A stretch of 64,000 nt of DNA, from IMG/VR virus record IMGVR_UViG_2706794662_000007, one strand, 5' to 3'. Source of the DNA: a virus. Taxonomy: Duplodnaviria > Heunggongvirae > Uroviricota > Caudoviricetes. A program made the translations under genes and the position numbers. Of the stretch, positions 2,959-62,539 are shown in pieces; positions within the stretch are counted from its first letter, which is position 1, and each line of letters begins with the position of its first letter. The notes beneath the pieces are model-generated. The model was not told the origin of the DNA. It worked only from the letters and a program-made list of their open reading frames with translations, and did no database searches.

Positions 2959-4897
2959 TTACTTAACCTGGTGGCCAGGTTTAGCACCAGCATCCGGGCT
3001 TAACAGGAAGATATCTTTCCCGCCAGGACCGGCAGCCATCACCATGCCTTCAGAGATACCGAAGCGCATTTTACGTGGTGCCAGGTTAGCCACCATAATG
3101 GTGTGACGACCAATCAGTGCCTGTGGATCTGGATAAGCGGAACGGATGCCTGAGAAGACATTACGCTTTTCACCACCGAGATCCAGCGTCAGGCGAAGCA
3201 GTTTGTCAGAACCTTCGACAAACTCCGCGTTTTCAATCAGCGCCACACGCAGGTCAACTTTGGCGAAGTCGTCAAAGGTGATGGTTTCCTGAATCGGTTC
3301 GTCAGCCAGTGGGCCAGTTACCGGTGCAGCTGTGGCTTTCACTTCTTCTTTGGATGCTTCCACCAGTGCTTCCACCTGTTTCATATCGATACGGTTATAC
3401 AGTGCCTTGAACGGATTCACTTTATGGCCCAGAAGCGGTTGCTGGATACCATCCCAGGTCAGTTCTGTATTCAGGAATGCTTCTGCACGTTCAGTCAGTT
3501 TCGGCAGTACCGGTTTCAGGTACGTCATCAGCACGCGGAACAGGTTAATGCCCATAGAGCAAATCGCCTGCAGATCTGCATCGCGACCTTCCTGCTTCGC
3601 CACCACCCACGGAGCCTGTTCATCGACATAGCGATTAGCCAGGTCAGCCAATGCCATGATTTCACGGATAGCTTTACCAAATTCGCGGCTTTCCCATGCT
3701 TCGCCAATCACTTCAGCGGCATCAGTAAAGGTTTTGTACAGTTGCGGGTCAGCCAGTTCGCTTGTCAGCACGCCGTCAAAACGCTTGTTGATAAAGCCTG
3801 CATTACGGGAGGCCAGGTTAACCACTTTGTTCACGATATCGGCATTCACGCGCTGAACGAAATCTTCCAGGTTGAGATCGATATCATCAATGCGCGAAGA
3901 GAGTTTCGCAGTGTAGTAGTAACGCAGGCTGTCAGCGTCAAAATGATTCAGCCAGGTGCTGGCTTTAATAAAGGTGCCGCGAGACTTGGACATCTTCGCG
4001 CCGTTCACCGTCACATAGCCGTGAACAAACAGGTTGGTCGGCTTGCGGAAGTTGCTGCCTTCCAGCATGGCAGGCCAGAACAGACTGTGGAAGTAAACGA
4101 TATCTTTGCCGATGAAGTGGTACAGCTCGGCGGTGGAGTCTTTCTTCCAGTATTCGTCGAAGCTTACGCTGTCGCCGCGCTTGTCGCACAGATTCTTGAA
4201 AGAACCCATGTAGCCAATCGGCGCGTCCAGCCAGACGTAGAAATATTTGCCCGGCGCGTTCGNNNNNNNNNNNNNNNNNNNNNNNNNNNNNNNNNNNNNN
4301 NNNNNNNNNNNNNNNNNNNNNNNNNNNNNNNNNNNNNNNNNNNNNNNNNNNNNNNNNNNNNNNNNNNNNNNNNNNNNNNNNNNNNNNNNNNNNNNNNNNN
4401 NNNNNNNNNNNNNNNNNNNNNNNNNNNNNNNNNNNNNNNNNNNNNNNNNNNNNNNNNNNNNNNNNNNNNNNNNNNNNNNNNNNNNNNNNNNNNNNNNNNN
4501 NNNNNNNNNNNNNNNNNNNNNNNNNNNNNNNNNNNNNNNNNNNNNNNNNNNNNNNNNNNNNNNNNNNNNNNNNNNNNNNNNNNNNNNNNNNCTCTTCGCT
4601 GTGCGTCGAGTGATAGTTGTCATAGCTGATGTTAAAGCCTGCGAAATCAGTCTGATGTTCCTGACTCATTTCGCCAATCATCTGTTCCGGTGTGATACCA
4701 AGCTGCTGTGCTTTCAGCATGATTGGCGTACCGTGGGCATCGTCGGCACAGATGAAATTAACCTCGTGGCCGCGCATTCGCTGGTAACGAACCCAGACAT
4801 CAGCCTGGATGTGCTCCAGCATATGGCCGAGGTGGATTGAGCCGTTAGCGTACGGCAGCGCGCACGTCACCAGAATTTTCTTCGCGACTTGGGTCAT
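2959..4897 (-). CDS. metG: methionyl-tRNA synthetase (interrupted by N-run 4263-4591)
   Basis: N-terminus [29 protein letters not shown] (HIGH motif) and C-terminus ...GAKPGHQVK match enterobacterial MetG as recalled; KMSKS present; ~140 residues hidden in the gap. Confidence 0.95.
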
Positions 4898-5054
4898 AGT
4901 AGGCATTACTTCTTTGTAGTGAAAAGGGGCTTGATAGTAACAAAATGGCCTTATGTCTGCCATGTGATAACAGCATTTCTCATAAATGATTAAATGTCGT
5001 AGCTGGAGTACACTACAAGGCGACAATTGCGCAAATTAAAATAAAGGAGACGGG

Positions 5055-6155
5055 ATGAGCGAGTCCAAATCGCCGGATGCCCTGAGAGCAATGGTAGCCG
5101 GTACGCTGGCTAATTTTCAGCACCCAACCCTGAAACACAACTTGACTACGCTTAAAGCGTTACACCATGTTGCGTTGATGGATGACACACTGCATGTCGA
5201 ACTAATCATGCCTTTCGTGTGGAATAAGCCTTTTGAAGACCTGAAAGAGCAATGTAGTGGTGATCTGCTCCGTATCACTGGCGCAAAGGCTATTGACTGG
5301 AAGCTGTCGTACAACATTGCCACGCTTAAGCGCGTCAAAAACCAACCAGGCATTAATGGCGTTAAGAACATTATCGCCGTCAGCTCAGGCAAGGGCGGCG
5401 TGGGTAAATCCTCCACAGCAGTAAACTTGGCACTGGCTTTGGCTGCTGAAGGTGCGAAAGTTGGTATTTTGGATGCCGATATCTATGGTCCATCAATTCC
5501 AACCATGCTGGGCGCGGAAAACCAACGTCCAACCTCACCGGACGGTACTCACATGGCACCTATCATGTCTCATGGCCTGGCAACCAACTCTATTGGTTAT
5601 CTGGTCACCGATGACAATGCAATGGTGTGGCGTGGACCGATGGCGAGCAAGGCGCTGATGCAGATGTTGCAGGAAACACTGTGGCCTGATCTGGACTATC
5701 TCGTTCTCGATATGCCACCGGGCACTGGTGATATTCAATTGACGCTGGCGCAGAACATTCCTGTAACTGGTGCGGTTGTGGTAACTACGCCGCAAGACAT
5801 CGCGCTGATCGATGCGAAGAAAGGCATTGTGATGTTCGAAAAAGTCGAAGTGCCGGTACTGGGTATCGTTGAAAACATGAGTGTGCATATTTGCAGTAAC
5901 TGCGGTCATCACGAGCCAATTTTTGGCACCGGTGGAGCACAGAAACTGGCCGAGAAATACAACACGCAGTTGTTAGGCCAAATGCCACTTCATATCTCTC
6001 TTCGTGAAGATCTGGATAACGGAACACCAACCGTTATTAGTCGTCCAGATAGCGAATTTACGGCTATTTATCGTGACCTCGCAGATCGCGTTGCTGCCCA
6101 AATGTATTGGCAAGGTGAAGTAATACCTGGCGAAATCGCATTCCGCGCAGTGTGA
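5055..6155 (+). CDS. apbC: Fe-S cluster carrier ATPase ApbC/Mrp
   Basis: 366 aa, P-loop GKGGVGKSS, CxxC near C-terminus, near-identical to E. coli Mrp as recalled; divergent from metG as on the chromosome. Confidence 0.95.
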   Translation: MSESKSPDALRAMVAGTLANFQHPTLKHNLTTLKALHHVALMDDTLHVELIMPFVWNKPFEDLKEQCSGDLLRITGAKAIDWKLSYNIATLKRVKNQPGINGVKNIIAVSSGKGGVGKSSTAVNLALALAAEGAKVGILDADIYGPSIPTMLGAENQRPTSPDGTHMAPIMSHGLATNSIGYLVTDDNAMVWRGPMASKALMQMLQETLWPDLDYLVLDMPPGTGDIQLTLAQNIPVTGAVVVTTPQDIALIDAKKGIVMFEKVEVPVLGIVENMSVHICSNCGHHEPIFGTGGAQKLAEKYNTQLLGQMPLHISLREDLDNGTPTVISRPDSEFTAIYRDLADRVAAQMYWQGEVIPGEIAFRAV

Positions 6156-6180
6156 TAAAAAGGCGGTGCATTGCACCGCC
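6156..6180 (-). terminator. terminator of the UmuD'-like gene, abutting the apbC stop codon
   Basis: hairpin GGCGGTGCA/TGCACCGCC followed by T-run in minus sense. Confidence 0.6.
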
Positions 6181-6192
6181 TAATCAGTTCTC

Positions 6193-6582
6193 CTACATCA
6201 CAGGACAATCATCAAACTCGCCACTTCTTGCGTCGTTGATAATGTGAGTGATCACACCAAACACGGCATTGCTGCCCGTGCATCCATCGTCATCCTTTGG
6301 CAATGCTTCCTTCTTACCGGTTCTTAAATCCTCCAGATGCTGACGTGGAGACTTCCGGTATCTTTTTACGCGATATTCCCCATCCAGAGCGCATACAAGC
6401 AGAGAACCATCAACCGGGGTAAGTGAGGAATCAACCACCAGCAATGCACCCTGTAATATTCCCTCACGATGATGACTATCAGCTGCTCTCATGAAGTAGG
6501 TCGCTGAAGGATGTCTAATTATCTGCTGATCAAGAGAAATACGGCTCTCAGCATAATCCGCCGCAGGAGAAGGGAAGCCCAT
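6193..6582 (-). CDS. UmuD'-like S24 peptidase-family protein (P1 HumD-like, natively lacking the UmuD N-terminal arm)
   Basis: starts MGFPSPAADYAESRISLDQQIIRHPSATYF, matching the UmuD region just after its RecA-mediated cleavage site; Ser and Lys positions retained; in-frame stop 4 codons upstream of ATG. Confidence 0.8.
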   Translation of the reverse strand: MGFPSPAADYAESRISLDQQIIRHPSATYFMRAADSHHREGILQGALLVVDSSLTPVDGSLLVCALDGEYRVKRYRKSPRQHLEDLRTGKKEALPKDDDGCTGSNAVFGVITHIINDARSGEFDDCPVM

Positions 6583-6767
6583 AGCGTTTTGCCCTCAATA
6601 CTGTTCATTTACACAGTATACATGAAAGAAGCTCACTCAGTGCAACTGATCGGTACATAGCACCAGACAAAGGAACGTTATTTTCTCGAACAAGAAAAGG
6701 TAGAAAACAAATTGTTTAAGGCCACAACTAGTGGCCTTAATGGAGAAGGGATGCTTATTGGCTATGG

Positions 6768-7286
6768 CTAAAAATCAAANNNNNNNNNNNNNNNNNNNNN
6801 NNNNNNNNNNNNNNNNNNNNNNNNNNNNNNNNNNNNNNNNNNNNNNNNNNNNNNNNNNNNNNNNNNNNNNNNNNNNNNNNNNNNNNNNNNNNNNNNNNNN
6901 NNNNNNNNNNNNNNNNNNNNNNNNNNNNNNNNNNNNNNNNNNNNNNNNNNNNNNNNNNNNNNNNNNNNNNNNNNNNNNNNNNNNNNNNNNNNNNNNNNNN
7001 NNNNNNNNNNNNNNNNNNNNNNNNNNNNNNNNTTTAAAGGAAGATAGGTTCCCCATAGTAGCTGTCTGCCGTGCGCTCGTGTGAAATACCGGGCCATCTT
7101 CGGATTGCTATGCTGCTTAGGAGCGCCTGGTCTGTATGTCTGATACCCGGCCAACATCCCATCAAACCTGTATAGAGGGAATGTAACAACTCCTTCGCTT
7201 TCATCGATCCACTGTCTATATGGATGCACATCATAGCGGTAGTTACGAGTTAGCAAATGAGCTTCCAGCTTTCCAAATTTAGTCAT
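6768..7286 (-). CDS. hypothetical protein, C-terminal part masked by N-run
   Basis: ATG at 7286 with GAGGGA SD; ORF runs into N-run 6780-7032, so the end is unreliable. Confidence 0.3.
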   Translation of the reverse strand: MTKFGKLEAHLLTRNYRYDVHPYRQWIDESEGVVTFPLYRFDGMLAGYQTYRPGAPKQHSNPKMARYFTRAHGRQLLWGTYLPLXXXXXXXXXXXXXXXXXXXXXXXXXXXXXXXXXXXXXXXXXXXXXXXXXXXXXXXXXXXXXXXXXXXXXXXXXXXXXXXXXXXXXFDF

Positions 7287-9338: not shown

Positions 9339-9611
9339 TTAACCCGCAGTGCNNNNNNNNNNNNNNNNNNNNNNNNNNNNNNNNNNNNNNNNNNNNNNNN
9401 NNNNNNNNNNNNNNNNNNNNNNNNNNNNNNNNNNNNNNNNNNNNNNNNNNNNNNNNNNNNNNNNNNNNNNNNNNNNNNNNNNNNNNNNNNNNNNNNNNNN
9501 NNNNNNNNNNNNNNNNNNNNNNNNNNNNNNNNNNNNNNNNNNNNNNNNNNNNNNNNNNNNNNNNNNNNNNNNNNNNNNNNNNNNNNNNNNNNNNNNNNNN
9601 NNAGTTGCCAT
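9339..9611 (-). CDS. hypothetical protein almost fully masked by N-run
   Basis: ATG at 9611 (MAT...) behind conserved junction GGAGAGTGATATG; body is N. Confidence 0.25.
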   Translation of the reverse strand: MATXXXXXXXXXXXXXXXXXXXXXXXXXXXXXXXXXXXXXXXXXXXXXXXXXXXXXXXXXXXXXXXXXXXXXXXXXXXXXXXXXXXXTAG

Positions 9612-9612
9612 A

Positions 9613-10134
9613 TCACTCTCCTTTGATGCGAATGCCTGCTGCAATGCTGTTTATGATGCTGTCAGTGCATGGAGTAGAAAGCTGGGCATCTCCAGCAATT
9701 TTCATGACCTCAACATCCGCATATCGAATACCGAGGTGTATCAGACCGGCTATACCTGACTTAAGTCGAACATTTTCCATAAACAGATCTTTTTCCCGCT
9801 GTTTAGCGGCTTCCAACTCCATCGACAATTTTTCCAACTGCTCTTTATGCTTCTTGTATTCCTGATACGCGTGCCAAGACTGACCTTTGCGCACACTATC
9901 AGTGATATCAGCAACCTGCTCCGGTGTTAGCGTGGTCAGTGGCTGTGCTGGAAAAATCATCACTTTCCCGGCATCCCAATCAAAACCCGCCTGAATTGAC
10001 TGAACCTCAACTGATGGTGTTGAACCGATGCGACCAGGCGAATGAACAACGATCGTTACATCCATATCGCGACGATGGCTGTGGTTGTTGGACAAAATAC
10101 GATTCACCAACTCAGAAAATTTGGAAAATTTCAT
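9613..10134 (-). CDS. hypothetical phage protein
   Basis: [10 protein letters not shown] start; C-terminus AAGIRIKGE shared with gene 10456..10986 because of a repeated junction sequence. Confidence 0.5.
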
Positions 10135-22425: not shown

Positions 22426-23070
22426 CTAATGAACGGTCACTCGACCACAGAACCGGTTTTCTATCTTTTCTACAGCGTTATCTAGCATTCTCATCACTGA
22501 TCTGGCTCTTGCTTCAACCGTGCGATATCGGTTGGAAACGACGAAGGTTTGCAGATCCCCCCTTTGCGGATGCAGGTGAATTTTTGTCAGTTCCCCGCAC
22601 ATCAACGCATCAATACGAGCGACATACAGACGGTCTAATGATGCTCGTTGTGATCGCAAGTAATCTCGCTCTGAGAGAGCGACTCCCGGGCGTAGGCCAG
22701 CAATGGCGTTAAAGTTTGAAATAGCAGTTTTGTGGCAAAACTTTTCGATATCGAGGGCTAACTCAATACATCGATCTTCATTGGTATGGCCGACCAAATC
22801 CAACGTGTAGGCCATAACATCAGCAGGTGTGCGATCGATAACAAAGCCTTCAACACCACGCGTAAGTAGCTCTATATGCTTTGCGATTTCCATTTGAATC
22901 TGAAGCCGCTCATATAGAGGCATAGACTCACCTACTCGAACACCGAGTCGGCTCATCAAACTTCCGACACCAGCATCCACGTAAGGGATTCCGTAATGTT
23001 TGTCGATATATTTTGCCAGGGTTGTTTTCCCACTGCCCTGAGCACCAGTGATCCCAATCCGGTAATCCAT
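22426..23070 (-). CDS. P-loop nucleotide kinase (dNMP/thymidylate kinase-like)
   Basis: Walker A GAQGSGKTT near N-terminus, 214 aa, inside nucleotide-metabolism operon. Confidence 0.5.
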   Translation of the reverse strand: MDYRIGITGAQGSGKTTLAKYIDKHYGIPYVDAGVGSLMSRLGVRVGESMPLYERLQIQMEIAKHIELLTRGVEGFVIDRTPADVMAYTLDLVGHTNEDRCIELALDIEKFCHKTAISNFNAIAGLRPGVALSERDYLRSQRASLDRLYVARIDALMCGELTKIHLHPQRGDLQTFVVSNRYRTVEARARSVMRMLDNAVEKIENRFCGRVTVH

Positions 23071-23546
23071 TACGACCTTCTGTATACGATCTGCGAAAAG
23101 CCAGGCTCTTCCTCGCTGGCTCGTTGGGTAAAAACTGTTTCAACAGGCACAAAGCCTAAATTACGCATCATGCTTGCCGGGAAGAATGCATCGGCGTTTG
23201 GCACATCAACGCCGATGTGGGAGAGCCAAATCTCTTCAACATGCGGCATGAATAGCGAGTAAATTTGTTCCCCGCCAATCACCCACACAGGCTCTGGTAA
23301 TCGCAACACATCATCCACACCAGCAGGGTAGAATCCATTTGGTACAAAGCCATGAGAGCGCGTCAAAACGAGGTTATGACGCTCTGGAAGAGGGCGTTTG
23401 AGACTTTCCATCGTTTTACGCCCCATAACGACAGTGGCGTTTTTGGTGAGTCTCTTAAATAGCTTCAGATCGGTAGAACAACGCCAGGGCAGTTCGTTCG
23501 CTATGCCGATCTCATAGTTACGGCCAACAGCAGCTATCATCTTCAT
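23070..23546 (-). CDS. folA: dihydrofolate reductase
   Basis: 158 aa; MIAAVGRNYEIG...LPW...VVMGRKT pattern typical of DHFR. Confidence 0.8.
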   Translation of the reverse strand: MKMIAAVGRNYEIGIANELPWRCSTDLKLFKRLTKNATVVMGRKTMESLKRPLPERHNLVLTRSHGFVPNGFYPAGVDDVLRLPEPVWVIGGEQIYSLFMPHVEEIWLSHIGVDVPNADAFFPASMMRNLGFVPVETVFTQRASEEEPGFSQIVYRRS

Positions 23547-25061: not shown

Positions 25062-25144
25062 AAAACCTCACGAAGATAAGTAATCAATTATTTATCACGT
25101 GAGTTTACATTCATTGATAAAACAAGACCAGATAGATAAAAAAT

Positions 25145-31135: not shown

Positions 31136-33058
31136 AGCTGCGCCCCTCTTTAACTTCCAGCGTAATAGTTTCCCGGAACCATGACTTCATCTCTTTATGG
31201 GAGATAATCAGCACAGTACCTCGCTCGCGAGCTTTGGACTCCAGAATACCCATGAGGCGTTCAAGACCGGCTGTATCGAGTGCATCGTCAATTTCGTCGC
31301 CGATAAACAAATCGATGTTTTTACTCGCCCGGTTACTAACCAGATCCTGCAATGCCAAAGAACACGCAATGCGAACCTTCCGCTTCTCACCACCAGAGAG
31401 GGTCTGGAACGACTTACTTGAACCTTTCTTCTGCACACTAATGTTGAATTTGTCGCGATACTCACCTTTTTTGGTGACATCCATCGTCGACCACTCAGCA
31501 GTAATATTCCCGTCAGACAACGTATTGAGATACTCGGCAGTGCGTGTATTCAGGAAAGGCGTAACAGACGTCAAAATATGAGAACGCACCCCGGCAGGAG
31601 AGTAGACCTGACGAGCTTTTTCCAATAGCAACGTTTGTTCCTGAATAGCCTTCAACTCATCTTTTAAGGACTTGAAGGTAGACTTACTGGATACCAGGTT
31701 ATCTTCGTGTCTGGCGATAAGAGCAATAAACGGATTAATCTCTTTTGATATACGATCGACCTCAGTACGAGCACGAGTCACAAGAGACTCAATAGCAACA
31801 ATCTCCTTCTCACGATGACGCAAAGATGAGAGTTGTTTCGTAAGCTCTTCAATCCGGGCAATGATAGCCGTTACATCAGGTGTCGTTTTAACAAGGGCAG
31901 ACTCAATGCTTAACGCTTTCTCAAGATTCGTTTTGTGTTTAGCCATTGCCTCTGCAAGTGTCTTCGCCTGACCAATTTCCTGACGTGCTTGTTCAATGAA
32001 ATTCTCCTTCACCGTTGATAGATCTTCTTCGCAGTAGGCTTTGCCACAAGTAGGGCATGGTGATCCCACTTTAGTACCAACCTCTTCTGCTTTGGTCTTA
32101 AAATTACGCGCGCGGTTCATTGCATCAGCCTGACTATTTTCTGTAGCTTTGATGCTTGCCCGAATATCAGTTATCGCACCACGAACNNNNNNNNNNNNNN
32201 NNNNNNNNNNNNNNNNNNNNNNNNNNNNNNNNNNNNNNNNNNNNNNNNNNNNNNNNNNNNNNNNNNNNNNNNNNNNNNNNNNNNNNNNNNNNNNNNNNNN
32301 NNNNNNNNNNNNNNNNNNNNNNNNNNNNNNNNNNNNNNNNNNNNNNNNNNNNNNNNNNNNNNNNNNNNNNNNNNNNNNNNNNNNNNNNNNNNNNNNNNNN
32401 NNNNNNNNNNNNNNNNNNNNNNNNNNNNNNNNNNNNNNNNNNNNNNNNNGATTGTCGACTCCAATTTGGTTTTAACCACATCCATACGTGCGGCAGCTGC
32501 ATTAGCTCGCTCACGAGCAATAGCGTAGGCGCGTGTCAGTCTGTCAACGCCAGCGGCTTCTTCTACGATGGTTTTGAGGTTTTTGTCGGACATTCCAGGT
32601 AAATCTGGCATAGCTTCTTGGCTCGCATAGATGGAAGCCATGAAAACCTCTTTAGATGCACCGATCAGACGCTCGACGAACTCTTGCGTCAGCGCATCTT
32701 TGCCTTTCGTCATATCGCCGTCTTCACCACGAACGATAAGCCGATTTTTGAACTCTTTGTGTTTACGGTGACGAATGATCGCATATCTCTTGCCTTCATC
32801 CTCGATGGTTACTGCAACACGACAGTTCTTTTCATGGTCGGTAGACAACACATCGTCACCCTTCACACCATGAGCTGTTTCGCCATAAAGACACCACATC
32901 AGGCTATTCATTAGCGTTGACTTTCCAGAGCCATTACTTGATGCGGAACTATCATCACTATTAACACCCTGAATGAGCACTAAACCACGCTGATCTAACT
33001 CGACCTCCGCGCTGGCGATAGCCATAAAATTCTCAACCTGGAGCTTTAAAAACTTCAT
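31125..33058 (-). CDS. sbcC: SbcC/Rad50-like ATPase (interrupted by N-run 32187-32449)
   Basis: N-terminal Walker A GSGKST; C-terminal signature LSGGE and Walker B DEIDDALD; coiled-coil middle. Confidence 0.75.
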
Positions 33059-35431: not shown

Positions 35432-35472
35432 GCTGTAAGCCGCGCCACGACTGGTCTGAAGTCATGTTCATG

Positions 35473-35573
35473 TATGCTGTCAGCGGTAATTGATAGTCTG
35501 TCAGCGGTTCACCGTATGCTGCCAACTGTTTTTGGTATTCTGTCAGCGGCAAATCAAGTATGCTGTCAGCGGT
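35473..35573. repeat. upstream iteron array: five 15-bp repeats TATGCTGTCAGCGGT at 21-22 bp spacing
   Basis: copies at 35473, 35494, 35515 (degenerate), 35537, 35559; overlaps repA promoter region. Confidence 0.8.
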
Positions 35574-35593
35574 TGAATGACAAAGGTGTCCAC

Positions 35594-36688
35594 ATGTCCA
35601 CAAAAAATAAAAAAGGTAAAAATAACAAAGAAGTAGAAGATAACATCGACAACTTTGAAGAAGGTTCCCTTGAATTGTACACAGGGGAACTTGTCCCTAA
35701 TAGCAACAATACAGTCCAACCAATTGCGTTGATGCGACTGGGGTTGTTCGTCCCCACGCTTAAGGGAACAAAATACAGTAAACGTAACAAGCCAAATGAG
35801 ATCGATGCTTCAAAGGAGCTTGTCCAGCTCGAAGTAGCCCGTTCTGAAGGCTATTCCGATATCAAGATAACCGGTCCTCGTCTCGACATGGATCATGATT
35901 TCAAAACGTGGGTGGGCGTTGTGCGTTCGCTGGCAGAATACGGCGAACCTAACGGTCGTGTCGAGTTAAGCATCACGAAATTTGCTAAGTTTTGTGGCTA
36001 TCCATCGTCACAGATCCGCAAAACACTCCGCGACCGGCTTACAAACAGTCTTTTGAAGATCATGCGTACAACTCTGTCTTTCCAGAGAACGTATGAAGAA
36101 AAGAACGTCGACGGCTCTAACAAGATCTCGCTTCTGATGGTGCACCTCATCAATAGCGTGGACTACAACGAGCAGAAAGATACGGTGGTGTTCTATGCAG
36201 AACCGAAGCTGGCCGAACTATATCGCTTTGACCATAAGGTTCTTTTGCAGTTAAAGGTTATCAATAAGCTACCACGCAAAGAAACAGCACAGGCTCTGTA
36301 CACCTTCATCGAAAGTCTTCCAACCAAGCCTGCGCCGGTATCGCTTGCTCGATTGCGTGCGCGACTCAATTTGAGTAGCAGGAATGTCAGCTCGCAGAAT
36401 CAGACTATACGTAACGGCTTAAAAGCTCTCCAAGATTTGGGCTATCTCGAATACAGCGAGATTAAGCGTGGGCGGTCGATCTATATCCAGATTCACAGCC
36501 GCAATCCAAAACTCAAAGTCGCACCGCCAAAACCTGAAGACATCGAACCCAAAAAACCAGATGAGAAAGCTGGGGAAATTGATGCCAAACAGAACATTAT
36601 CAACAAGATAACCGAACTTTCGCAGAATTTGACGCCTGAAAATATCAAGATGATTGAGATCCTTTCCAATAGTCTCAAACTGCTTTGA
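35594..36688 (+). CDS. repA: plasmid replication initiator RepA (P1 RepA-like)
   Basis: MSTKNKKG start; NSNNTVQPIALMRLGLFVP, DIKITGPRLDMD, ALYTFIESLP, HSRNPKLK resemble P1 RepA as recalled; flanked by iterons on both sides. Confidence 0.8.
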   Translation: MSTKNKKGKNNKEVEDNIDNFEEGSLELYTGELVPNSNNTVQPIALMRLGLFVPTLKGTKYSKRNKPNEIDASKELVQLEVARSEGYSDIKITGPRLDMDHDFKTWVGVVRSLAEYGEPNGRVELSITKFAKFCGYPSSQIRKTLRDRLTNSLLKIMRTTLSFQRTYEEKNVDGSNKISLLMVHLINSVDYNEQKDTVVFYAEPKLAELYRFDHKVLLQLKVINKLPRKETAQALYTFIESLPTKPAPVSLARLRARLNLSSRNVSSQNQTIRNGLKALQDLGYLEYSEIKRGRSIYIQIHSRNPKLKVAPPKPEDIEPKKPDEKAGEIDAKQNIINKITELSQNLTPENIKMIEILSNSLKLL

Positions 36689-37220
36689 TATGCTGTCAGC
36701 GGTGAAATGTATGCTATCAGCGGCTATTTTTCTGAAAAGTATGCTGTGAACGGTTAAAGATATGCTACCAGCGGTATAGTGAGATGAACGTATGCTGTGA
36801 GCGGTAAATCATCTATCACCACTCAATGCTCTGTCATACCTCCCCAGTGGTTACTAACCTCGAAGAGTGCATTCCATATAGGTTTGCGCTCACTAACATT
36901 CTATTGCTATTGCGCTGATTGCTTGTAGTGAAAGGCATTTATTGCCTGCTACTCCCTGATAGAACGTATGCTGTCAGCGGTGTTTTATTGAGGAATTTTT
37001 GTTTGGATATGCTATCAGCGGTAATTAATGGCATATGTCAGACATTCGTATGCTGCCAGCGGTAATTTTGTTCTGGTTATACCCATACCGGTACACATTA
37101 TTCATGCAATGTCTTAAGTATGCTGTCAGCGGTAAAAAATCGAGTAAAGTATGCTGTGAGCGGTGAGATAGACTCTCGATATGCTATCAGCGGTAGTTGA
37201 TTGTGTATGCTGTCAGCGGT
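36689..37220. repeat. downstream iteron arrays: 12 copies of TATGCT(G/A)(T/C)(C/G)AGCGG(T/C) in two clusters (incA-like)
   Basis: copies at 36689, 36710, 36740, 36761, 36791, 36967, 37008, 37049, 37119, 37150, 37180, 37206. Confidence 0.8.
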
Positions 37221-42093: not shown

Positions 42094-43184
42094 TTACTCT
42101 TCTACTGACTCGGTGGGGTTGTCTTTTGCTCTTCGGTCGTCGATTGCCTGCAAAGCCGCAATGATTTCAGCCAGTGGCTTCTCCCGATACATCTCGACGA
42201 TCTGCGATTTGGTGTATTTCTTGTCACCAATTTCAACTCGCCCGCTGGCGTTCTTTGGCAGGTATCCTTCTTCCAGCATGTACTCGACGAGCGATTCGAT
42301 AACGTCGAGGCCACGAGTAGGATCGAAGTAGAATTTCCAGGTGCATTTGCCATACGGTGGTGCAACTTTGTTTTTGATGCATTCTGCGCCTACGTCCTGG
42401 CCGATCTTCTCTTTACCATCCTTCATCACCGATGCACCAAGACGGATACGTACAGAAGCGTAGAACTTCGGTGAATCTCCACCTGGAGACGTAGTAGGGT
42501 CGCCAAACATTACACCGATTTTTGTGCGAACCTGATTCAAGAAGATGATGCAGGCGTTGTATTTGCGTGCCCACAAAGCCAGAGTAGGGAAGTTCGCACT
42601 TGTCGCACGAGCCAGTGCCGTATTGTCGTTCATGTTTAGCTGATCTTTGTCTTTGGCAGTGCCTTCAGCCATCTTTTCGAACTTCTCGGCTTTGGAGTTC
42701 GGAACCATAGACGCAAGTGAGTCAGCCACGATACAGATAGGTGCTGATTCAGGAATAAGCTCTTCATCACGTACCAATTTAAGAATTGTGCCGATCAACT
42801 CTACAGAGTCTTCGAAGGTATCAGGCTGCTTGTATACCCACTGACCGTCATCCTCATCTGCATTCAAACCATTGGCTACAGCCAGGCCAACGTCAAAACT
42901 GTTCTCATGATCGAGGANNNNNNNNNNNNNNNNNNNNNNNNNNNNNNNNNNNNNNNNNNNNNNNNNNNNNNNNNNNNNNNNNNNNNNNNNNNNNNNNNNN
43001 NNNNNNNNNNNNNNNNNNNNNNNNNNNNNNNNNNNNNNNNNNNNNNNNNNNNNNNNNNNNNNNNNNNNNNNNNNNNNNNNNNNNNNNNNNNNNNNNNNNN
43101 NNNNNNNNNNNNNNNNNNNNNNNNNNNNNNNNNNNNNNNNNNNNNNNNNNNNNNNNNNNNNNNNNNNNNNNNNNNTTTTGCCAT
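42094..43184 (-). CDS. RecA-like recombinase (interrupted by N-run 42918-43175)
   Basis: IIFLNQVRTKIGVMFGDPTTSPGG...FYASVRIRL matches the RecA core; ATG at 43184 with AAGGAG SD. Confidence 0.75.
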
Positions 43185-46151: not shown

Positions 46152-46160
46152 TTTATTGGA

Positions 46161-49100
46161 TCACGACTTAATAGTTTCTGCTACGTCGGCTAATATCGCT
46201 TCTAGTCGTTCTCCCTCTTCAGGTCTGAAGTAAAGAATGTTGGGGTTAAACCCGTAAAAGACTGTAACGTCAAGGTCTGGAAGATACTCCTTCCTACCGA
46301 CTAAATCGGATGGCTTGTTTTTGTTGTTAAACAATGCCGTTGCCCGACTGCCACACGTCAGCACATAGGTCGGACGTACCAGATTGATCTCTTCACGCAT
46401 AAAGTCGGTGAACTGGCCGATCTCGTCTTTGGTGTAGTCCTTTTCTTTGTCTTTCACCTTTTTGCAAACGCCTGTGACATAGAGATCGCCCATGCGCAAA
46501 TCTCCAGCCGTCAACAGCTTGGCCTTAAAATCGTCGTATCCGTTCTCCATGAAGTAACCGGTTCGAGCATCATTGCCGTTTGCATTGTCCAGAATGATCA
46601 TGATTTTCGGCTTAATACCAATGCTGGGGCGGATTAGTTCATCACCTAAGCCCATTTCAGCCGCCATCCGCGTCATAAGTACGTTAATTTCAGCCGAACG
46701 TTTGGAGTTCATCTCAAACGGACGTGAGGCTTTAACTGCGTCTATGACAAGATTTCCCATCAATTCCGCTTGGTCGCGGAGACGTTCTGGATCAGTTGCT
46801 GGCAGACTGCCTGGCTCGATGGATGCAAACGCCCCTACTTTTTGCAGTGATTCGCGCACTCGACTATTACAGGCACGTTTCTCGACAGCTTCTTCGAATT
46901 GCGCCAGTGACTCGAATTTGCCGCCAACTTTTTCTCGCGCTCTCATGATGGCCTGGCAGCCATTCTCAGAACAACCTTTCACAGCAGAGAAGGGCGCATA
47001 CAGCACCTGGCTGCCATCTTCAAGCGTGCGGATCTCAATTCGGTTAGATGACACGTTAACGTCTGGTGGCAATACGCGAATACCATAGGTCAGCGCATCT
47101 TTAACCAGCCCCTGGTGTTTATCTTCGCCAAGAATAGTGAGAGCAGCAGCGAAAAACTCTGCGGGATAATGAGTTTTCAACCACATAGATTGATAACTGA
47201 TTAAGGAGTAAGCAACAGAGTGTGATTTGTTGAACTGGTAGGCACCATTCTTTTCGAATGCGGTCCAGATCTCCTTCGCTTTCATCTCTGATAGCCCTGG
47301 ATGTGACGCTGTAACGCGTACTGCGTTTATAGGTAGTTTTGCGCCGTACTCAAGTGCCTCTTCGACAGTTTTCATAGTTCCGTCTTCGCATTTAAAATGT
47401 TCCGCACGGTGAATGCGCTGTGTAGTGCCATCTTCCAGCTCAACGTCTATCCAGCCAGCTTGAGCCTGAACGATGAACTTCTCGCCCATGCTCTTCATTT
47501 TTTCCATGTCTTTTTTGCCTATCGCTTTACGAACGCCGTCAGCTTCAGCCATTGTGAAGCCAGCAAGCAATCGAGTCGCGTTCATCGTCTGTTCCTGATA
47601 GAGAATCACGCCATTTGTTTCTGCGGTAAGTTCATCAAGAACGGGGTGTAATGATTCCGGCGTCATAAAGCCTTTGGCGACAGAAACATAATCATCCAAC
47701 ATGCCTGACTGAATTGGTCCCGGCCGGAAGAGCGCAGTCGTGGCGACAACGGTTTTAAAGCTCATTGGCTCAATGCCACCGCCCAGATCTTTAAGCAGCT
47801 TGCGCATTGGGCCTGATTCAAGCTGGAAAACACCTTGAGTGTACCCAGCAGCAAAACCATCCAGCACCTTGCGATCTTCAAGAGAAATGGTATCAAGATT
47901 GATATCTTCACCTGTGTTCTCTTTAATGTAGCGTTTTGCACTATCGAGCAAATCGAGAGTTGCCAGGCCAAGCACGTCCAGCTTAATTAGGCCCATAGCC
48001 TCGCAGTAACGCTTGTCAAATGCGATACAACGCGCGTCACCACGGCGCTCAACCGGTGTACGTTCTGTCAGAGGAACACCTGCTACGATCATCCCTGCCG
48101 CATGTCTACCAAAGCCACGCATAAGGCTTTGTAACTTGCAGGCTGCATTGAATGCATCAGGATATTTTGTTGCGTATTTGTCGAGACTTGCCAGTTGTTC
48201 GCGCAGCTCTTCCAATGGAAGGCTATCATCCTCGACGTTCTTCAGTTCTTTTGATACCGCCATATCTGCGGACTCCACACCATAAATACGAGCGGTATCA
48301 CGTAGTGCAGAGGCTGCGCCCAGGTAGGTGAAGTTCGGAATGCCTGCAACGTAATCTTCGCCGTAGCGTTCATTCAGATACTCGATCACTTCATGGCGAC
48401 GTGCCTGGCTGAAGTCCAAATCCGCATCCGGCAAGTCGAGACGCTCAGGGTTGATGAAACGTTCAAACAGAAGACCGTGACGGATTGGGTCGACGTTGGT
48501 TATGCCTATGCACCATGCCACCAGAGATCCAGCGGAGGAACCACGACCAGGCCCGACAGGAATGCCAGTTTCACGACTATGATTCATCAGATCGCGCACC
48601 ATCAGGAAGTAACCACAGAATCCCAGGCGAGTCAGCGTGTCCATTTCGTACTTTAGCCGCTCAACATAAACCCTGTTCTCAGAAGCAGGTGGTGTGTATC
48701 CAAACTCTTTTGTGGTAAGACGTTTACGCAGCCCTGCAACAGCCAGTTTCATCAGCGTTGCAGGTTCGTCGTCTGCCATCTTGGGCAGTGCTGGTGGCAA
48801 TTCATGCCAGCGCCATGTGCAGGCATCGATAATGGTATCCTGCGTTGTTGAGGCCATTGCAGCTGTTACCGGCACATCCATGCGAACGGAGAAGGCTTTA
48901 AGCGCCTCAAGGAGATGGCGGCGACCATTGACGGCGTTATCTCGCTGGTGGGGGATACGCAGACGATGCGGCTGGTCGATTTTTATGTTGTTCGTAACCA
49001 TGTGCGCAATGTCTTTAATGTCTGCATCGTCGATCGATTCGTAATAAGCGGGATAGAACGCCACTGGCTCTATTTTCAATGCGCTGGCGACTTTCATCGC

Positions 49101-49679
49101 CCGGACGTTAATCTGGTCGTAGAATGGGGTAGGGTGCGGATAAACCACACTATAGAAGTTGTCTTTTCCACCCGGTGTAATCAGTGTGCTTATGATTTTT
49201 GCAAAATCGTTGCGTTGGAACACGCTACCGATGTCGGAAGTGAGCAGGATGATGTTGCCTTTGGCATATGTAGAAACCAACTGTTCGAGCGAGAGACGCG
49301 GTACAAAGTAGAACTGTTCTCGTGTGTTGGCCACCGTCATTAGTTCGCAGATGTCGCGATATCCTTGCTCATTTTTAATTAGAGCGGTAAACGAGTAGTT
49401 ACGTCCTCGCTCTAATGATTCCATACATCCCTTAGATTCTTTAGCAAGTTTATCCCGGTGCTCGTATGTGGGATCATCAACGATGTTTAGTTTCACACCA
49501 CAAATAACCGCCATGTCGTCACCAGCGGCACGTTGTAGTGGAATAACACTCGCAATATTCATGCTATCTGCTGAAATTACAGCGGTGTAGCCAGCTTCTC
49601 TGGCAATCTTCACCGCGTTTTCTGCTTTTAGAGCCGACTCCCCAAGTGAGAAGTCAGTTCGAACCATCAGTGCCTTCAT
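46161..49679 (-). CDS. dnaE: DNA polymerase III alpha-like (DnaE-family) replicative polymerase
   Basis: 1172 aa; N-terminal PHP domain; GFCGYFLMVRDLMNHSRETGIPVGPGRGSSAGSLVAWCIGITNVDPIRHGLLFERFINPER matches the DnaE palm region. Confidence 0.9.
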   Translation of the reverse strand: MKALMVRTDFSLGESALKAENAVKIAREAGYTAVISADSMNIASVIPLQRAAGDDMAVICGVKLNIVDDPTYEHRDKLAKESKGCMESLERGRNYSFTALIKNEQGYRDICELMTVANTREQFYFVPRLSLEQLVSTYAKGNIILLTSDIGSVFQRNDFAKIISTLITPGGKDNFYSVVYPHPTPFYDQINVRAMKVASALKIEPVAFYPAYYESIDDADIKDIAHMVTNNIKIDQPHRLRIPHQRDNAVNGRRHLLEALKAFSVRMDVPVTAAMASTTQDTIIDACTWRWHELPPALPKMADDEPATLMKLAVAGLRKRLTTKEFGYTPPASENRVYVERLKYEMDTLTRLGFCGYFLMVRDLMNHSRETGIPVGPGRGSSAGSLVAWCIGITNVDPIRHGLLFERFINPERLDLPDADLDFSQARRHEVIEYLNERYGEDYVAGIPNFTYLGAASALRDTARIYGVESADMAVSKELKNVEDDSLPLEELREQLASLDKYATKYPDAFNAACKLQSLMRGFGRHAAGMIVAGVPLTERTPVERRGDARCIAFDKRYCEAMGLIKLDVLGLATLDLLDSAKRYIKENTGEDINLDTISLEDRKVLDGFAAGYTQGVFQLESGPMRKLLKDLGGGIEPMSFKTVVATTALFRPGPIQSGMLDDYVSVAKGFMTPESLHPVLDELTAETNGVILYQEQTMNATRLLAGFTMAEADGVRKAIGKKDMEKMKSMGEKFIVQAQAGWIDVELEDGTTQRIHRAEHFKCEDGTMKTVEEALEYGAKLPINAVRVTASHPGLSEMKAKEIWTAFEKNGAYQFNKSHSVAYSLISYQSMWLKTHYPAEFFAAALTILGEDKHQGLVKDALTYGIRVLPPDVNVSSNRIEIRTLEDGSQVLYAPFSAVKGCSENGCQAIMRAREKVGGKFESLAQFEEAVEKRACNSRVRESLQKVGAFASIEPGSLPATDPERLRDQAELMGNLVIDAVKASRPFEMNSKRSAEINVLMTRMAAEMGLGDELIRPSIGIKPKIMIILDNANGNDARTGYFMENGYDDFKAKLLTAGDLRMGDLYVTGVCKKVKDKEKDYTKDEIGQFTDFMREEINLVRPTYVLTCGSRATALFNNKNKPSDLVGRKEYLPDLDVTVFYGFNPNILYFRPEEGERLEAILADVAETIKS

Positions 49680-49863
49680 GTGTTTTTACCTTTCTGGTTT
49701 TTTTGATTTTGTCATTTGGGAAGCCTACGAACTTCCCATGCATCGAAATCGCAACTTCTTTTGCTGATTGGTGACAATAAGGCTTGTCTGGACACTCCAG
49801 ACAAGCCTTACCAGTTTCAGAAGCAGCGATAAGAGAGCCGAAACATCCTTTACGCACGATCAA
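49654..49863 (-). CDS. hypothetical small Cys-rich protein
   Basis: 69-aa ORF overlapping the polymerase start. Confidence 0.25.
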   Translation of the reverse strand: MIVRKGCFGSLIAASETGKACLECPDKPYCHQSAKEVAISMHGKFVGFPNDKIKKTRKVKTHEGTDGSN

Positions 49864-57688: not shown

Positions 57689-57775
57689 TGGCGGAGAGTA
57701 ATGGAATCGAACCATCATCGCTTGCGCAATGGGACGGTTTTCAAGACCGCTTGAGCACCATGCTCCCTACTCTCC
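57689..57775 (-). tRNA. tRNA-Ser (anticodon UGA), type II with long variable arm
   Basis: 7-bp acceptor stem GGAGAGT/ACTCTCC, anticodon loop CTTGAAA, T-loop TTCGATT, encoded CCA; short D-loop. Confidence 0.65.
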
Positions 57776-57939
57776 AGTCGTTGTGGTTACCGGTACTGAT
57801 CTCCGGCTTAGCGACCCCGGCTACTGACTGCATTGCAGTGTGTGAACTCGCCTCGTGTGTCGCTGGGGCATTTCTTTCCGCGCATCAGTCTGCGCATCAA
57901 CCACAACGGAAAGAGCATTCACGTCTCGCGTGCCACCAC

Positions 57940-58035
57940 GAATGGCAACTCAGAGAGTCGAACTCTGAAAATGTTCTTACCTGTTGTGCGCTCCGTTTCG
58001 TGGAGCTAACGGCGGGTGAACAGGCCGCACCAGGT
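57940..58035 (-). pseudogene. tRNA-like remnant (T-arm intact, no pairing acceptor stem)
   Basis: perfect T-arm CAGAG-TTCGACT-CTCTG but no complementary acceptor stem found. Confidence 0.3.
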
Positions 58036-58265
58036 TGGACATATTTCAGCGTTATGCTGTTGCAAGAGAGCCAAATTGTGATGGTCGGCGCTGATCTCCG
58101 ACACAGGGTTGTAGCAAGCCCCGCAAAGCGCGCACTACTGTAGTTGCGGCACATCAGCCTGTGCATTCACCACAATGTTGAGAACACTGGTTGTCACGCG
58201 GCAACGCAACATTTATTCATAGATTGGGATATGACCCCGTTACGCCAATGTTCTCAATATTATGT

Positions 58266-58341
58266 TGGTGCCGATTAACGGGATCGAACCGATGACCATT
58301 CGCTTACAAAGCGACTGCTCTACCAACTGAGCTAAATCGGC
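58266..58341 (-). tRNA. tRNA-Thr (anticodon UGU)
   Basis: acceptor GCCGATT/AATCGGC, D-arm TAGCTCAGTTGGTAGAGCA, anticodon loop TTTGTAA, T-loop TTCGATC, encoded CCA. Confidence 0.8.
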
Positions 58342-58345
58342 AATT

Positions 58346-58432
58346 TGGTGGGGAGTGATAGAGTCGAACCACCCGAGTCGCAATGACAGTAGATTTACAG
58401 TCTACCCCGCTACCTCTACGGACTAACTCCCC
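58346..58432 (-). tRNA. tRNA-Tyr (anticodon GUA), type II
   Basis: acceptor GGGGAGT/ACTCCCC, anticodon arm GTAGA-CTGTAAA-TCTAC, long variable arm, encoded CCA. Confidence 0.8.
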
Positions 58433-58437
58433 TAAAT

Positions 58438-58512
58438 TGGCGATGGTGGGTGGATTCGAACCACCGACCAATTGGTTAACAGCCAACTGCTCTACCGCTG
58501 AGCTACACCATC
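58438..58512 (-). tRNA. tRNA-Asn (anticodon GUU)
   Basis: perfect 7-bp acceptor GATGGTG/CACCATC, anticodon loop CTGTTAA, T-arm GGTGG-TTCGAAT-CCACC, encoded CCA; differs from E. coli tRNA-Asn as recalled. Confidence 0.85.
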
Positions 58513-61242: not shown

Positions 61243-62539
61243 TGTTGTTTTACCTCCATATGTTGATCGATTTGCTCATGTGTTTCTTTTGTTGTTTCTT
61301 CAAGCAACGCCGCATACACGTCAGTGATCGCTGTTTGTGATGTGGTGCTCTTCTTAACCATGCTATTAATCGTTACACTGTCACGTTTTCGTTTTAAAGT
61401 TCTGGCTTGTTTATTCCGTTCTTCAACCTCCTTAATGAGCGCGGTCATATCTTCGAAATACAGAGATTCTCCTTTACGAATCTCTTCAACCATCATTTTT
61501 AACGCCTTGCATTTGCCTGCTTTGATAGCGGTTGCGCACGACTGGAATGAAGTTCGAGGAAGACGGTTTTCTTTGAAGGCAAGAATGGTGTGCTGGCAAA
61601 CGGAGTAGCTGCAATATGCCGACTCACCGTTTATNNNNNNNNNNNNNNNNNNNNNNNNNNNNNNNNNNNNNNNNNNNNNNNNNNNNNNNNNNNNNNNNNN
61701 NNNNNNNNNNNNNNNNNNNNNNNNNNNNNNNNNNNNNNNNNNNNNNNNNNNNNNNNNNNNNNNNNNNNNNNNNNNNNNNNNNNNNNNNNNNNNNNNNNNN
61801 NNNNNNNNNNNNNNNNNNNNNNNNNNNNNNNNNNNNNNNNNNNNNNNNNNNNNNNNNNNNNNNNNNNNNNNNNNNNNNNNNNNNTAGCAATCCTGACCAC
61901 CTTCCAAGCAAATTCCGCCATTACGCCATCACATGCCTTCCCAGCATCAATAACGATATGCACCAGATCCAACTGGCTTTTGCACATGTCGCAAAGAGAC
62001 GCATACTCACTCTCTCTGATTACATTTACGGCATCATTAGCCCCTTTATTAAGCAAGACTTCCAACAGATTTTTCGGGGTAACGAAATCTGCTTTCAGAG
62101 ATAATGTCTTTTCACCACTTATCGAACGCAAGTACTCTTCGTAGTTATTCTTCATCAAACCGCTGCTGCGCATTGCTAGAACTGCTTCTTGAATGGCCGC
62201 TTCAATAGTTTCGTCGTTTGAAAGACAAAAAACGGTATTTGTGTAGATCACTCTGCCATCAAGCCATGCTCCAACCTGCACTTTAAGACTGAGCGGGTTT
62301 TCTTTGCTAATAAAAACAACTAATGCAGAACGTCGTGCACAAGAAGGTTCACCCCATACGTGTAACTTAACCTTCAGATAAGGTAGCCCCGGTAGCGGGA
62401 TCTCGACCAAACGAGTGGCGATATGATCCATTGCTGTTTTTACCGCTTTTTCAATGATGTCTAGTCGATTGCTCTCGCTGATTTCTAAACCAGTTTTATC
62501 AATGATGTCGCAGGCTAATTTCTGAATTTCGTCTTTCAT
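61239..62539 (-). CDS. hypothetical replication-associated protein (interrupted by N-run 61635-61884)
   Basis: two ORF pieces either side of the gap, between primase and ligase; frame continuity cannot be verified. Confidence 0.35.

Follow-up and report, generated by a model that had tools for sequence, protein, structure and literature searches.

An orphan humD gene with a predicted LexA box on an SSU5-type phage-plasmid

The minus strand of the window, by which we mean the whole 64,000-nt stretch of viral DNA analysed here, carries a short reading frame whose product resembles UmuD' and which has no umuC beside it. Such a locus raises the questions of which protein is encoded, whether a product made in the cleaved form escapes the SOS response, and with which polymerase partner it would act. 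An earlier note on this DNA had read the product as a constitutively activated form of UmuD that needs no SOS processing. Our analysis confirmed the observation of a UmuD'-like reading frame without umuC, and the gene is an ordinary copy of humD, which was previously studied in phage P1 and is already known and common.

The element and its UmuD'-type gene

The window was 96.6–99.97% identical, block by block (about 99%), to positions 25078–89277 of p09EL50 (NC_018651.1), a 109,274-bp plasmid of Escherichia coli O104:H4 2009EL-2050. The annotation of p09EL50 combines phage structural genes (capsid, portal, terminase and tail) with plasmid functions (a RepB initiator and ParB-type partition proteins), and includes its own DnaE, RecA, DnaB-like helicase, ligase, NrdAB, ThyA and DfrA51. 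Published work counts the plasmid, like pLF82, pHCM2 and phage SSU5, among the 'phage-like plasmids' (PMC3999498; PMC3486847). The window is an SSU5/pHCM2-type phage-plasmid and not chromosome. Its own methionyl-tRNA synthetase gene (metG) and ApbC/Mrp iron-sulfur carrier gene (apbC) give the region a chromosomal look; about 5800 E. coli records hold chromosomal copies, with only 80–90% nucleotide identity to those of the window. A chromosomal context was considered because of these neighbours and rejected because the identity is no higher than that.

Other landmarks of the element are listed in Table 1. It also encodes RNase HI, and DfrA51 is a trimethoprim-resistant enzyme. An Rfam search of the window returned only tRNAs and nothing near humD. 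Seven runs of N are masked in the window, and one of them falls within toprim, the gene next to humD on its upstream side. This run is 253 nt long, compared with 246 nt in the reference plasmid, and reading frames across the N runs are therefore unreliable.

Table 1. Features around humD and further landmarks of the element (positions in the window)
Feature	Position	Strand	Remarks
humD coding sequence	6193..6582	minus	129 codons plus TAG stop (6193-6195), ATG start; from the ORF list
C-terminal extension SGEFDDCPVM	6196-6225	minus	residues 120-129, past the end of UmuD
Shine-Dalgarno sequence GAGGG	6592..6596	minus	9 nt before ATG; overlaps in-frame TGA (6595-6597); read from sequence
In-frame TGA	6597..6595	minus	fifth codon 5' of ATG
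Predicted LexA (SOS) box TACTGTGTAAATGAACAGTA	6599..6618	minus	17-36 nt 5' of ATG; holds CTGT-N8-ACAG at 6601-6616
Putative -10 hexamer TATACT	6615..6620	minus	overlaps left arm of LexA box; kept in all upstream variants of related loci
Putative -35 hexamer TTGCAC	6640..6645	minus	19 nt 5' of -10
Terminator-like hairpin	6161..6181	minus	12 nt past humD stop, between convergent apbC and humD; 9-bp stem with 7 GC pairs, then T run; terminator scan
Terminator-like hairpin	6716..6740	minus	after upstream toprim gene; terminator scan
End of toprim coding sequence	about 6755		from comparison with p09EL50
metG	about 2959-5000	minus	methionyl-tRNA synthetase
apbC	5055-6155	plus	ApbC/Mrp iron-sulfur carrier
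Stand-alone ClpX N-terminal zinc-binding domain homologue	10131-10496	minus	phrog_6797; PGAP 'ClpX C4-type zinc finger protein'
dfrA51	about 23070-23545		mapped from p09EL50
repB	about 35470-36690		mapped from p09EL50
recA	about 42094-43167		mapped from p09EL50; partly masked
dnaE	about 46160-49680		mapped from p09EL50
Four-tRNA cluster	57689-58512	minus	Ser-TGA, Thr-TGT, Tyr-GTA, Asn-GTT; three confirmed by Rfam at gathering threshold
Masked N runs	4263-4591, 6780-7032, 9353-9602, 13174-13428, 32187-32449, 42918-43175, 61635-61884		6780-7032 lies in the toprim gene

The reading frame encodes a natively truncated UmuD'-type protein of 129 aa. Its residue 2 aligned with Gly25 of UmuD, which is the first residue of cleaved UmuD'. 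In HMMER searches against the PDB, structures of UmuD and UmuD' ranked first: residues 2–118 aligned with residues 1–114 of the UmuD' chain 1UMU (E 5e-23) and also with residues 25–136 of full-length UmuD in 8GMT. A tblastn alignment with K-12 UmuD opened at UmuD residue 25, corresponding to window position 6579 in the second codon of the frame. These alignments bear out the claim of the earlier note that the frame begins right after the RecA-facilitated self-cleavage site. The sequence GFPSPAADY, which follows the initiator Met, equals the N-terminus of RecA-cleaved UmuD' in all nine residues. Among 121 representatives of the HumD family, 117 have M-G at the start position and the N-terminal arm M-GFPSPA-D hardly varies. 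As a rule, an initiator Met that precedes Gly is taken off by methionine aminopeptidase; with Gly as residue 2 of HumD, removal is expected and the mature end would match that of UmuD'.

Upstream of the ATG the frame translates as '...NEQY*GQNA MGFPSPAADY...'. Four sense codons separate the in-frame TGA from the ATG, and in this sense the stop had been placed correctly at four codons upstream. Reading the same frame between the TGA and the ATG, we found no ATG, GTG or TTG, and the upstream stop thus leaves no alternative start for humD. The GAGG of the Shine-Dalgarno sequence is kept in nearly all related loci.

The protein scored 218.7 bits (cutoff 120; E 1.8e-65) against the NCBIfam equivalog NF051876, 'HumD family translesion DNA polymerase', and matched it at full length, with protein residues 1–129 on model positions 1–129. 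The UmuD model NF007621 (Pol V autoproteolytic subunit) gave 87.8 bits, under its cutoff of 110, and the features of UmuD proper, a cleavable arm with a Cys/Ala-Gly site and a umuC operon, are absent. Pfam Peptidase_S24 (PF00717) was matched with 38.1 bits (cutoff 23.3; E 1.4e-9), and the PHROGs assignment was phrog_811, 'UmuD-like protein'. The E values of the HumD and Pfam matches lie well outside the range of chance. P1 HumD proved to be the apt precedent, with 117 of 129 residues identical (91%) in an ungapped alignment. Identity to the window protein is 100% for the product of Escherichia phage CMS-2020a and 99% for that of phage Cyrano. An AlphaFold model computed from 50 family members reached a pLDDT of about 75–82 in the core and a mean of 66, which is enough for fold assignment but too low to judge active-site geometry; its best PDB matches in Foldseek (8GMT, 1UMU, 1AY9 and 1I4V) were all UmuD or UmuD'.

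We also considered a LexA-family repressor and rejected it: TIGR00498 gave 27.9 bits against a cutoff of 110.95 and matched only at model positions 91–167, its C-terminal part, and a protein of 129 aa leaves no room for an N-terminal winged-helix DNA-binding domain. The identification as humD is useful as annotation, as many records call such genes 'S24 family peptidase', 'LexA family transcriptional regulator' or 'DNA repair protein'. It has little discovery value, the family being curated and named and P1 HumD, the closest characterised relative, having been the subject of experiments in 1999.

A gene that is shorter than umuD and stands without umuC might also be a decaying, functionless remnant of a 5'-truncated umuDC operon. 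Yet the dN/dS ratio of the window allele against P1 or other alleles was 0.04–0.07, and humD is under purifying selection. The 129 codons and the ATG start were found in 80/80 related viral loci, which hold 43 distinct nucleotide alleles, the LexA box and the ribosome binding site are conserved, and a viral contig collection contains at least 467 relatives. Judged by these conservation data, the remnant is effectively refuted.

Promoter region and transcription unit

The motif CTGT-N8-ACAG occurs a single time in the 64-kb window, within the predicted LexA box of humD (Table 1). In the related viral loci it lies 34–37 nt 5' of the ATG in 80/80 cases; its arms CTGT and ACAG are fixed across the 80 loci and the spacer varies, with at least 13 variants. 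The equivalent site 5' of P1 humD is annotated as a LexA binding site, and P1 humD has been described as LexA-regulated (PMC9603915).

A sigma-70 consensus scan of positions 6100–6790 called no promoter. The hexamers that we assign to the promoter are separated by 19 nt, an unusual spacer that would account for the negative scan. TTGCAC or TTTCAC stands at the same 19-nt distance in the P1-type context and in two further upstream contexts of otherwise unrelated sequence.

Because the LexA box overlaps the putative −10 hexamer, transcription of humD is still expected to be under SOS control, and from its sequence humD is probably LexA-repressed. The claim of a constitutively activated protein with no need for SOS processing therefore stands in part. 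It holds for RecA-facilitated cleavage and would fail for SOS control, given a predicted LexA box over the putative −10 that is kept in all 80 loci. The bypass is limited to the RecA-assisted self-cleavage step and does not extend to SOS control as a whole.

The terminator-like hairpin on the toprim side would set humD apart as its own transcription unit. Together with the hairpin past the humD stop and the predicted LexA box, it suggests that humD forms an autonomous single-gene unit.

Polymerase partner and proposed mode of action

With K-12 UmuC as query, tblastn found no UmuC homologue in the 64-kb window (best match E 5.8 over 21 aa), as the earlier note had said, nor in the complete 109-kb p09EL50 (best E 6.5). 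Its suggestion to look for a Y-family polymerase in the rest of the element likewise turned up none among the 129 annotated features of the whole reference plasmid. The N runs of the window, 250–329 nt each, are too short to hide the 422-aa UmuC. Within 3 kb of humD, a UmuC match was found in 0 of the 80 related viral loci. In contrast to its absence from the element, umuC was present at ≥80% coverage in 5405 of 5426 complete E. coli genomes, adjoining umuD, so that a host partner is practically always available. These counts support the view that the partner must come from the host.

We consider it likely, on the combined evidence, that humD is made in the post-cleavage form under LexA control and works with host UmuC in Pol V-like translesion synthesis. 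Host LexA bound over the −10 would hold off transcription of humD until DNA damage and the SOS response release it. Removal of the initiator Met would then expose the N-terminus GFPSPAADY, as in UmuD'. HumD would dimerise and join host UmuC, which is itself the product of an SOS gene and would be induced as well, and the dimer with UmuC and RecA-ATP would form a Pol V-like translesion polymerase. There would be no wait for the slow RecA*-assisted self-cleavage of UmuD, and on damaged DNA of host and element, lesion bypass and mutagenesis could set in earlier or be stronger.

P1 HumD reportedly dimerises, binds UmuC and the RecA filament, and complements UmuD'; we infer that the window protein would share these properties. 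P1 HumD is also said to be poorly expressed. By CRISPRi, P1 humD was dispensable for lytic growth (PMC10695390). On both counts, a benefit of the gene in nature is putative.

HumD could instead mainly modulate host UmuD. Heterodimers with uncleaved UmuD would cancel the UmuD2C 'checkpoint' or alter UmuD/DinB interactions, and replication of the element would resume early after damage. The UmuD'-type core and the N-terminal arm are conserved, the host almost always has umuD adjoining umuC, and UmuD/UmuD' heterodimers are preferred over homodimers, all of which fits this idea. We nevertheless regard it as unlikely: the positive complementation of UmuD' function reported for P1 HumD counts against it. 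It could coexist with Pol V-like action with host UmuC.

Another candidate set of partners is encoded by the element itself, which has its own RecA, Pol III alpha (DnaE), DnaB-like helicase and ligase. UmuD and UmuD' contact Pol III subunits, and P1 humD lies near hot, a gene for a Pol III theta homologue. HumD might thus serve the element's DnaE, RecA and helicase instead of host UmuC. This is very unlikely in view of phages N15, phiKO2, HK140, HK639 and Pocitis76, whose HumD-type genes share start, tail and LexA box with the window gene (the neighbourhood inspected was that of Pocitis76). At 40–50 kb, the genomes of these phages are too small for the DnaE/RecA set of the 109-kb element, which argues that the HumD family is independent of such genes.

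Database labels such as 'S24 family peptidase' and 'LexA family transcriptional regulator', as well as the Pfam match, suggest an active S24 serine protease that would act in trans, for example by cleaving host UmuD, LexA or a phage repressor. In the window allele, Ser36 stands opposite Ser60 of UmuD and Lys73 opposite Lys97, with a one-residue alignment gap near the Ser. Among the 121 family representatives, however, 75 have Ser at the position of the nucleophile Ser60, 44 have Thr and 2 have Ala; the equivalent of Lys97 is kept in 118. Hafnia phage Pocitis76 (45% identity) has Tyr/Arg in place of the Ser/Lys pair, and yet its homologue retains the MGFPSPAADY start and the C-terminal tail, stands without umuC and has a LexA box 34 nt upstream. 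The GDSM motif is replaced in the HumD family by xS/T-H-F/Y-R-E, whereas full-length, umuC-linked homologues have both the cleavage site and GDSM. Self-cleavage chemistry thus appears not to be kept by selection in HumD, which counts against a peptidase. Considering further that a DNA-binding domain is absent and that the LexA model stays far under its cutoff, we hold a protease in trans to be highly improbable.

Pol V-like action with host UmuC is therefore the best-supported explanation and outranks UmuD modulation, element-encoded partners, protease activity and gene decay. One part of the protein, judging from the alignments, is not explained by simple mimicry of UmuD': the strictly conserved C-terminal tail, which has no counterpart in UmuD'. 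The family pattern of this 10-residue extension is ...(S/N)(G/A)EFDDCPVM. Across 50 diverse members no change was seen at E122, D124 or P127, and conservation reached 90% or more at F123, D125, C126 and V128. Residues 121–129 have an AlphaFold pLDDT <50, i.e. they are predicted to be disordered. The tail of Pocitis76, SEFDDNPCM, is kept though the Ser/Lys pair is lost.

An acidic tail that is conserved, predicted to be disordered and hydrophobic at its C-terminus has the look of a peptide for partner binding. The C-terminal tip of SSB is DFDDDIPF, to which the HumD tail bears a loose resemblance. HumD might accordingly be more than a pre-cleaved UmuD, its EFDDCPVM docking onto a partner that is not the UmuC surface which binds UmuD'; we give this idea a small chance. 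SSB-tip-binding pockets, a replisome component or a protease adaptor could be the partner. If the idea were true, orphan HumD would carry its own recruitment or stability signal and could capture a non-cognate host polymerase. The tail is the one point that might repay experiment.

As a separate observation, the stand-alone ClpX zinc-finger gene of the element lies 3.5 kb from humD. The zinc-binding domain of ClpX tethers UmuD for degradation of UmuD' by ClpXP, and a link between the element's ClpX-ZBD-like protein and the stability of HumD is conceivable.

Distribution and comparison with known systems

Nucleotide homology to P1 (85%) spans window positions 6629 to 6194 and ends exactly at the stop, and the flanks are unrelated. 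The shared block comprises 47 nt 5' of the ATG, the LexA box, the ribosome binding site and the reading frame. The limits of homology and the unrelated flanks indicate that LexA box, ribosome binding site and reading frame are shared as one cassette. About 53 of the 80 viral loci are of the P1 type, with phd-doc downstream, and about 23 are of the SSU5 type, with apbC in that place. On the upstream side, the neighbour of humD varies in both types of element: it is a toprim, lxr or hot (Pol III theta) homologue, in differing combinations. This variation suggests that the region around the cassette is recombinationally active. The same LexA-box-plus-humD cassette occurs in the three main enterobacterial phage-plasmid types (P1, N15 and SSU5) and in several lambdoid phages.

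In the protein database 562 protein clusters matched, many of them already named 'HumD family'. DNA resembling humD was found in 741 of 5426 complete E. coli genomes (about 14%), and 697 of the 781 places with such DNA in these genomes lie on plasmids. In about 14% of complete E. coli genomes, the cassette together with host UmuC could thus raise damage-induced mutagenesis. Some copies are incomplete. The homologues of BTP1-like Salmonella phages (LT714109.2, which is BTP1, MT774487.1 and CP051279.1; all Lederbergvirus) are 62–63% identical and were each found as two tblastn pieces, from which we conclude that this homologue is probably frameshifted. Several Stx1/Stx2 phages (e.g. NC_011357.1) have only a C-terminal humD fragment, corresponding to query residues 73–128, near one end of the record.

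The closest known system is HumD of P1 (P1_gp103; McLenigan et al. 1999, J Bacteriol 181:7005), which shares with the window protein the length of 129 aa, the MGFPSPAADY start, the C-terminal tail and the orphan status without umuC. In both, the LexA box lies about 20–37 nt before the ATG. The two proteins differ by 12 substitutions, and the last residue is Met in the window protein and Ile in P1. Their flanks also differ: in the window, humD has convergent apbC downstream and the toprim gene with its terminator upstream, whereas in P1 it has phd-doc downstream and divergent lxr upstream.

E. coli UmuD and UmuD' (1UMU, 1AY9, 1I4V and 8GMT) have the same S24 beta-fold core; over UmuD residues 25–139 the identity is about 42%. 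The window protein agrees with UmuD' in the first nine residues and, in this allele, in Ser and Lys at the dyad-aligned positions. Unlike UmuD, HumD is without the 24-residue N-terminal arm, the Cys-Gly cleavage site and the umuC operon, and it has a 4-residue insertion near residue 101 in addition to its conserved 10-residue C-terminal extension.

The genes of other temperate phages (N15 gp26, phiKO2 gp23, HK140, HK639 and Pocitis76) are likewise orphans. Their products of 125–129 aa are 45–71% identical to the window protein and align across the whole query, which takes in the start and the C-terminal region; for Pocitis76, the start, the tail (EFDDxPxM), the position of the LexA box and the absence of umuC were checked directly. 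They differ from the window gene in being more divergent and in residing in integrating or linear-plasmid prophages; in some, Pocitis76 among them, the Ser/Lys pair is gone.

The umuDC-type operons of Klebsiella phage ST846-OXA48phi9.2, Salmonella phage Oslo and Cronobacter phage ENT39118 and the plasmid-borne mucAB and rumAB also place UmuD homologues on mobile elements, some with a LexA box. In contrast to HumD, the homologues of ST846-OXA48phi9.2, Oslo and ENT39118 have no HumD tail; they are full length, with a Cys/Ala-Gly site, a GDSM motif and a umuC-type gene directly after.
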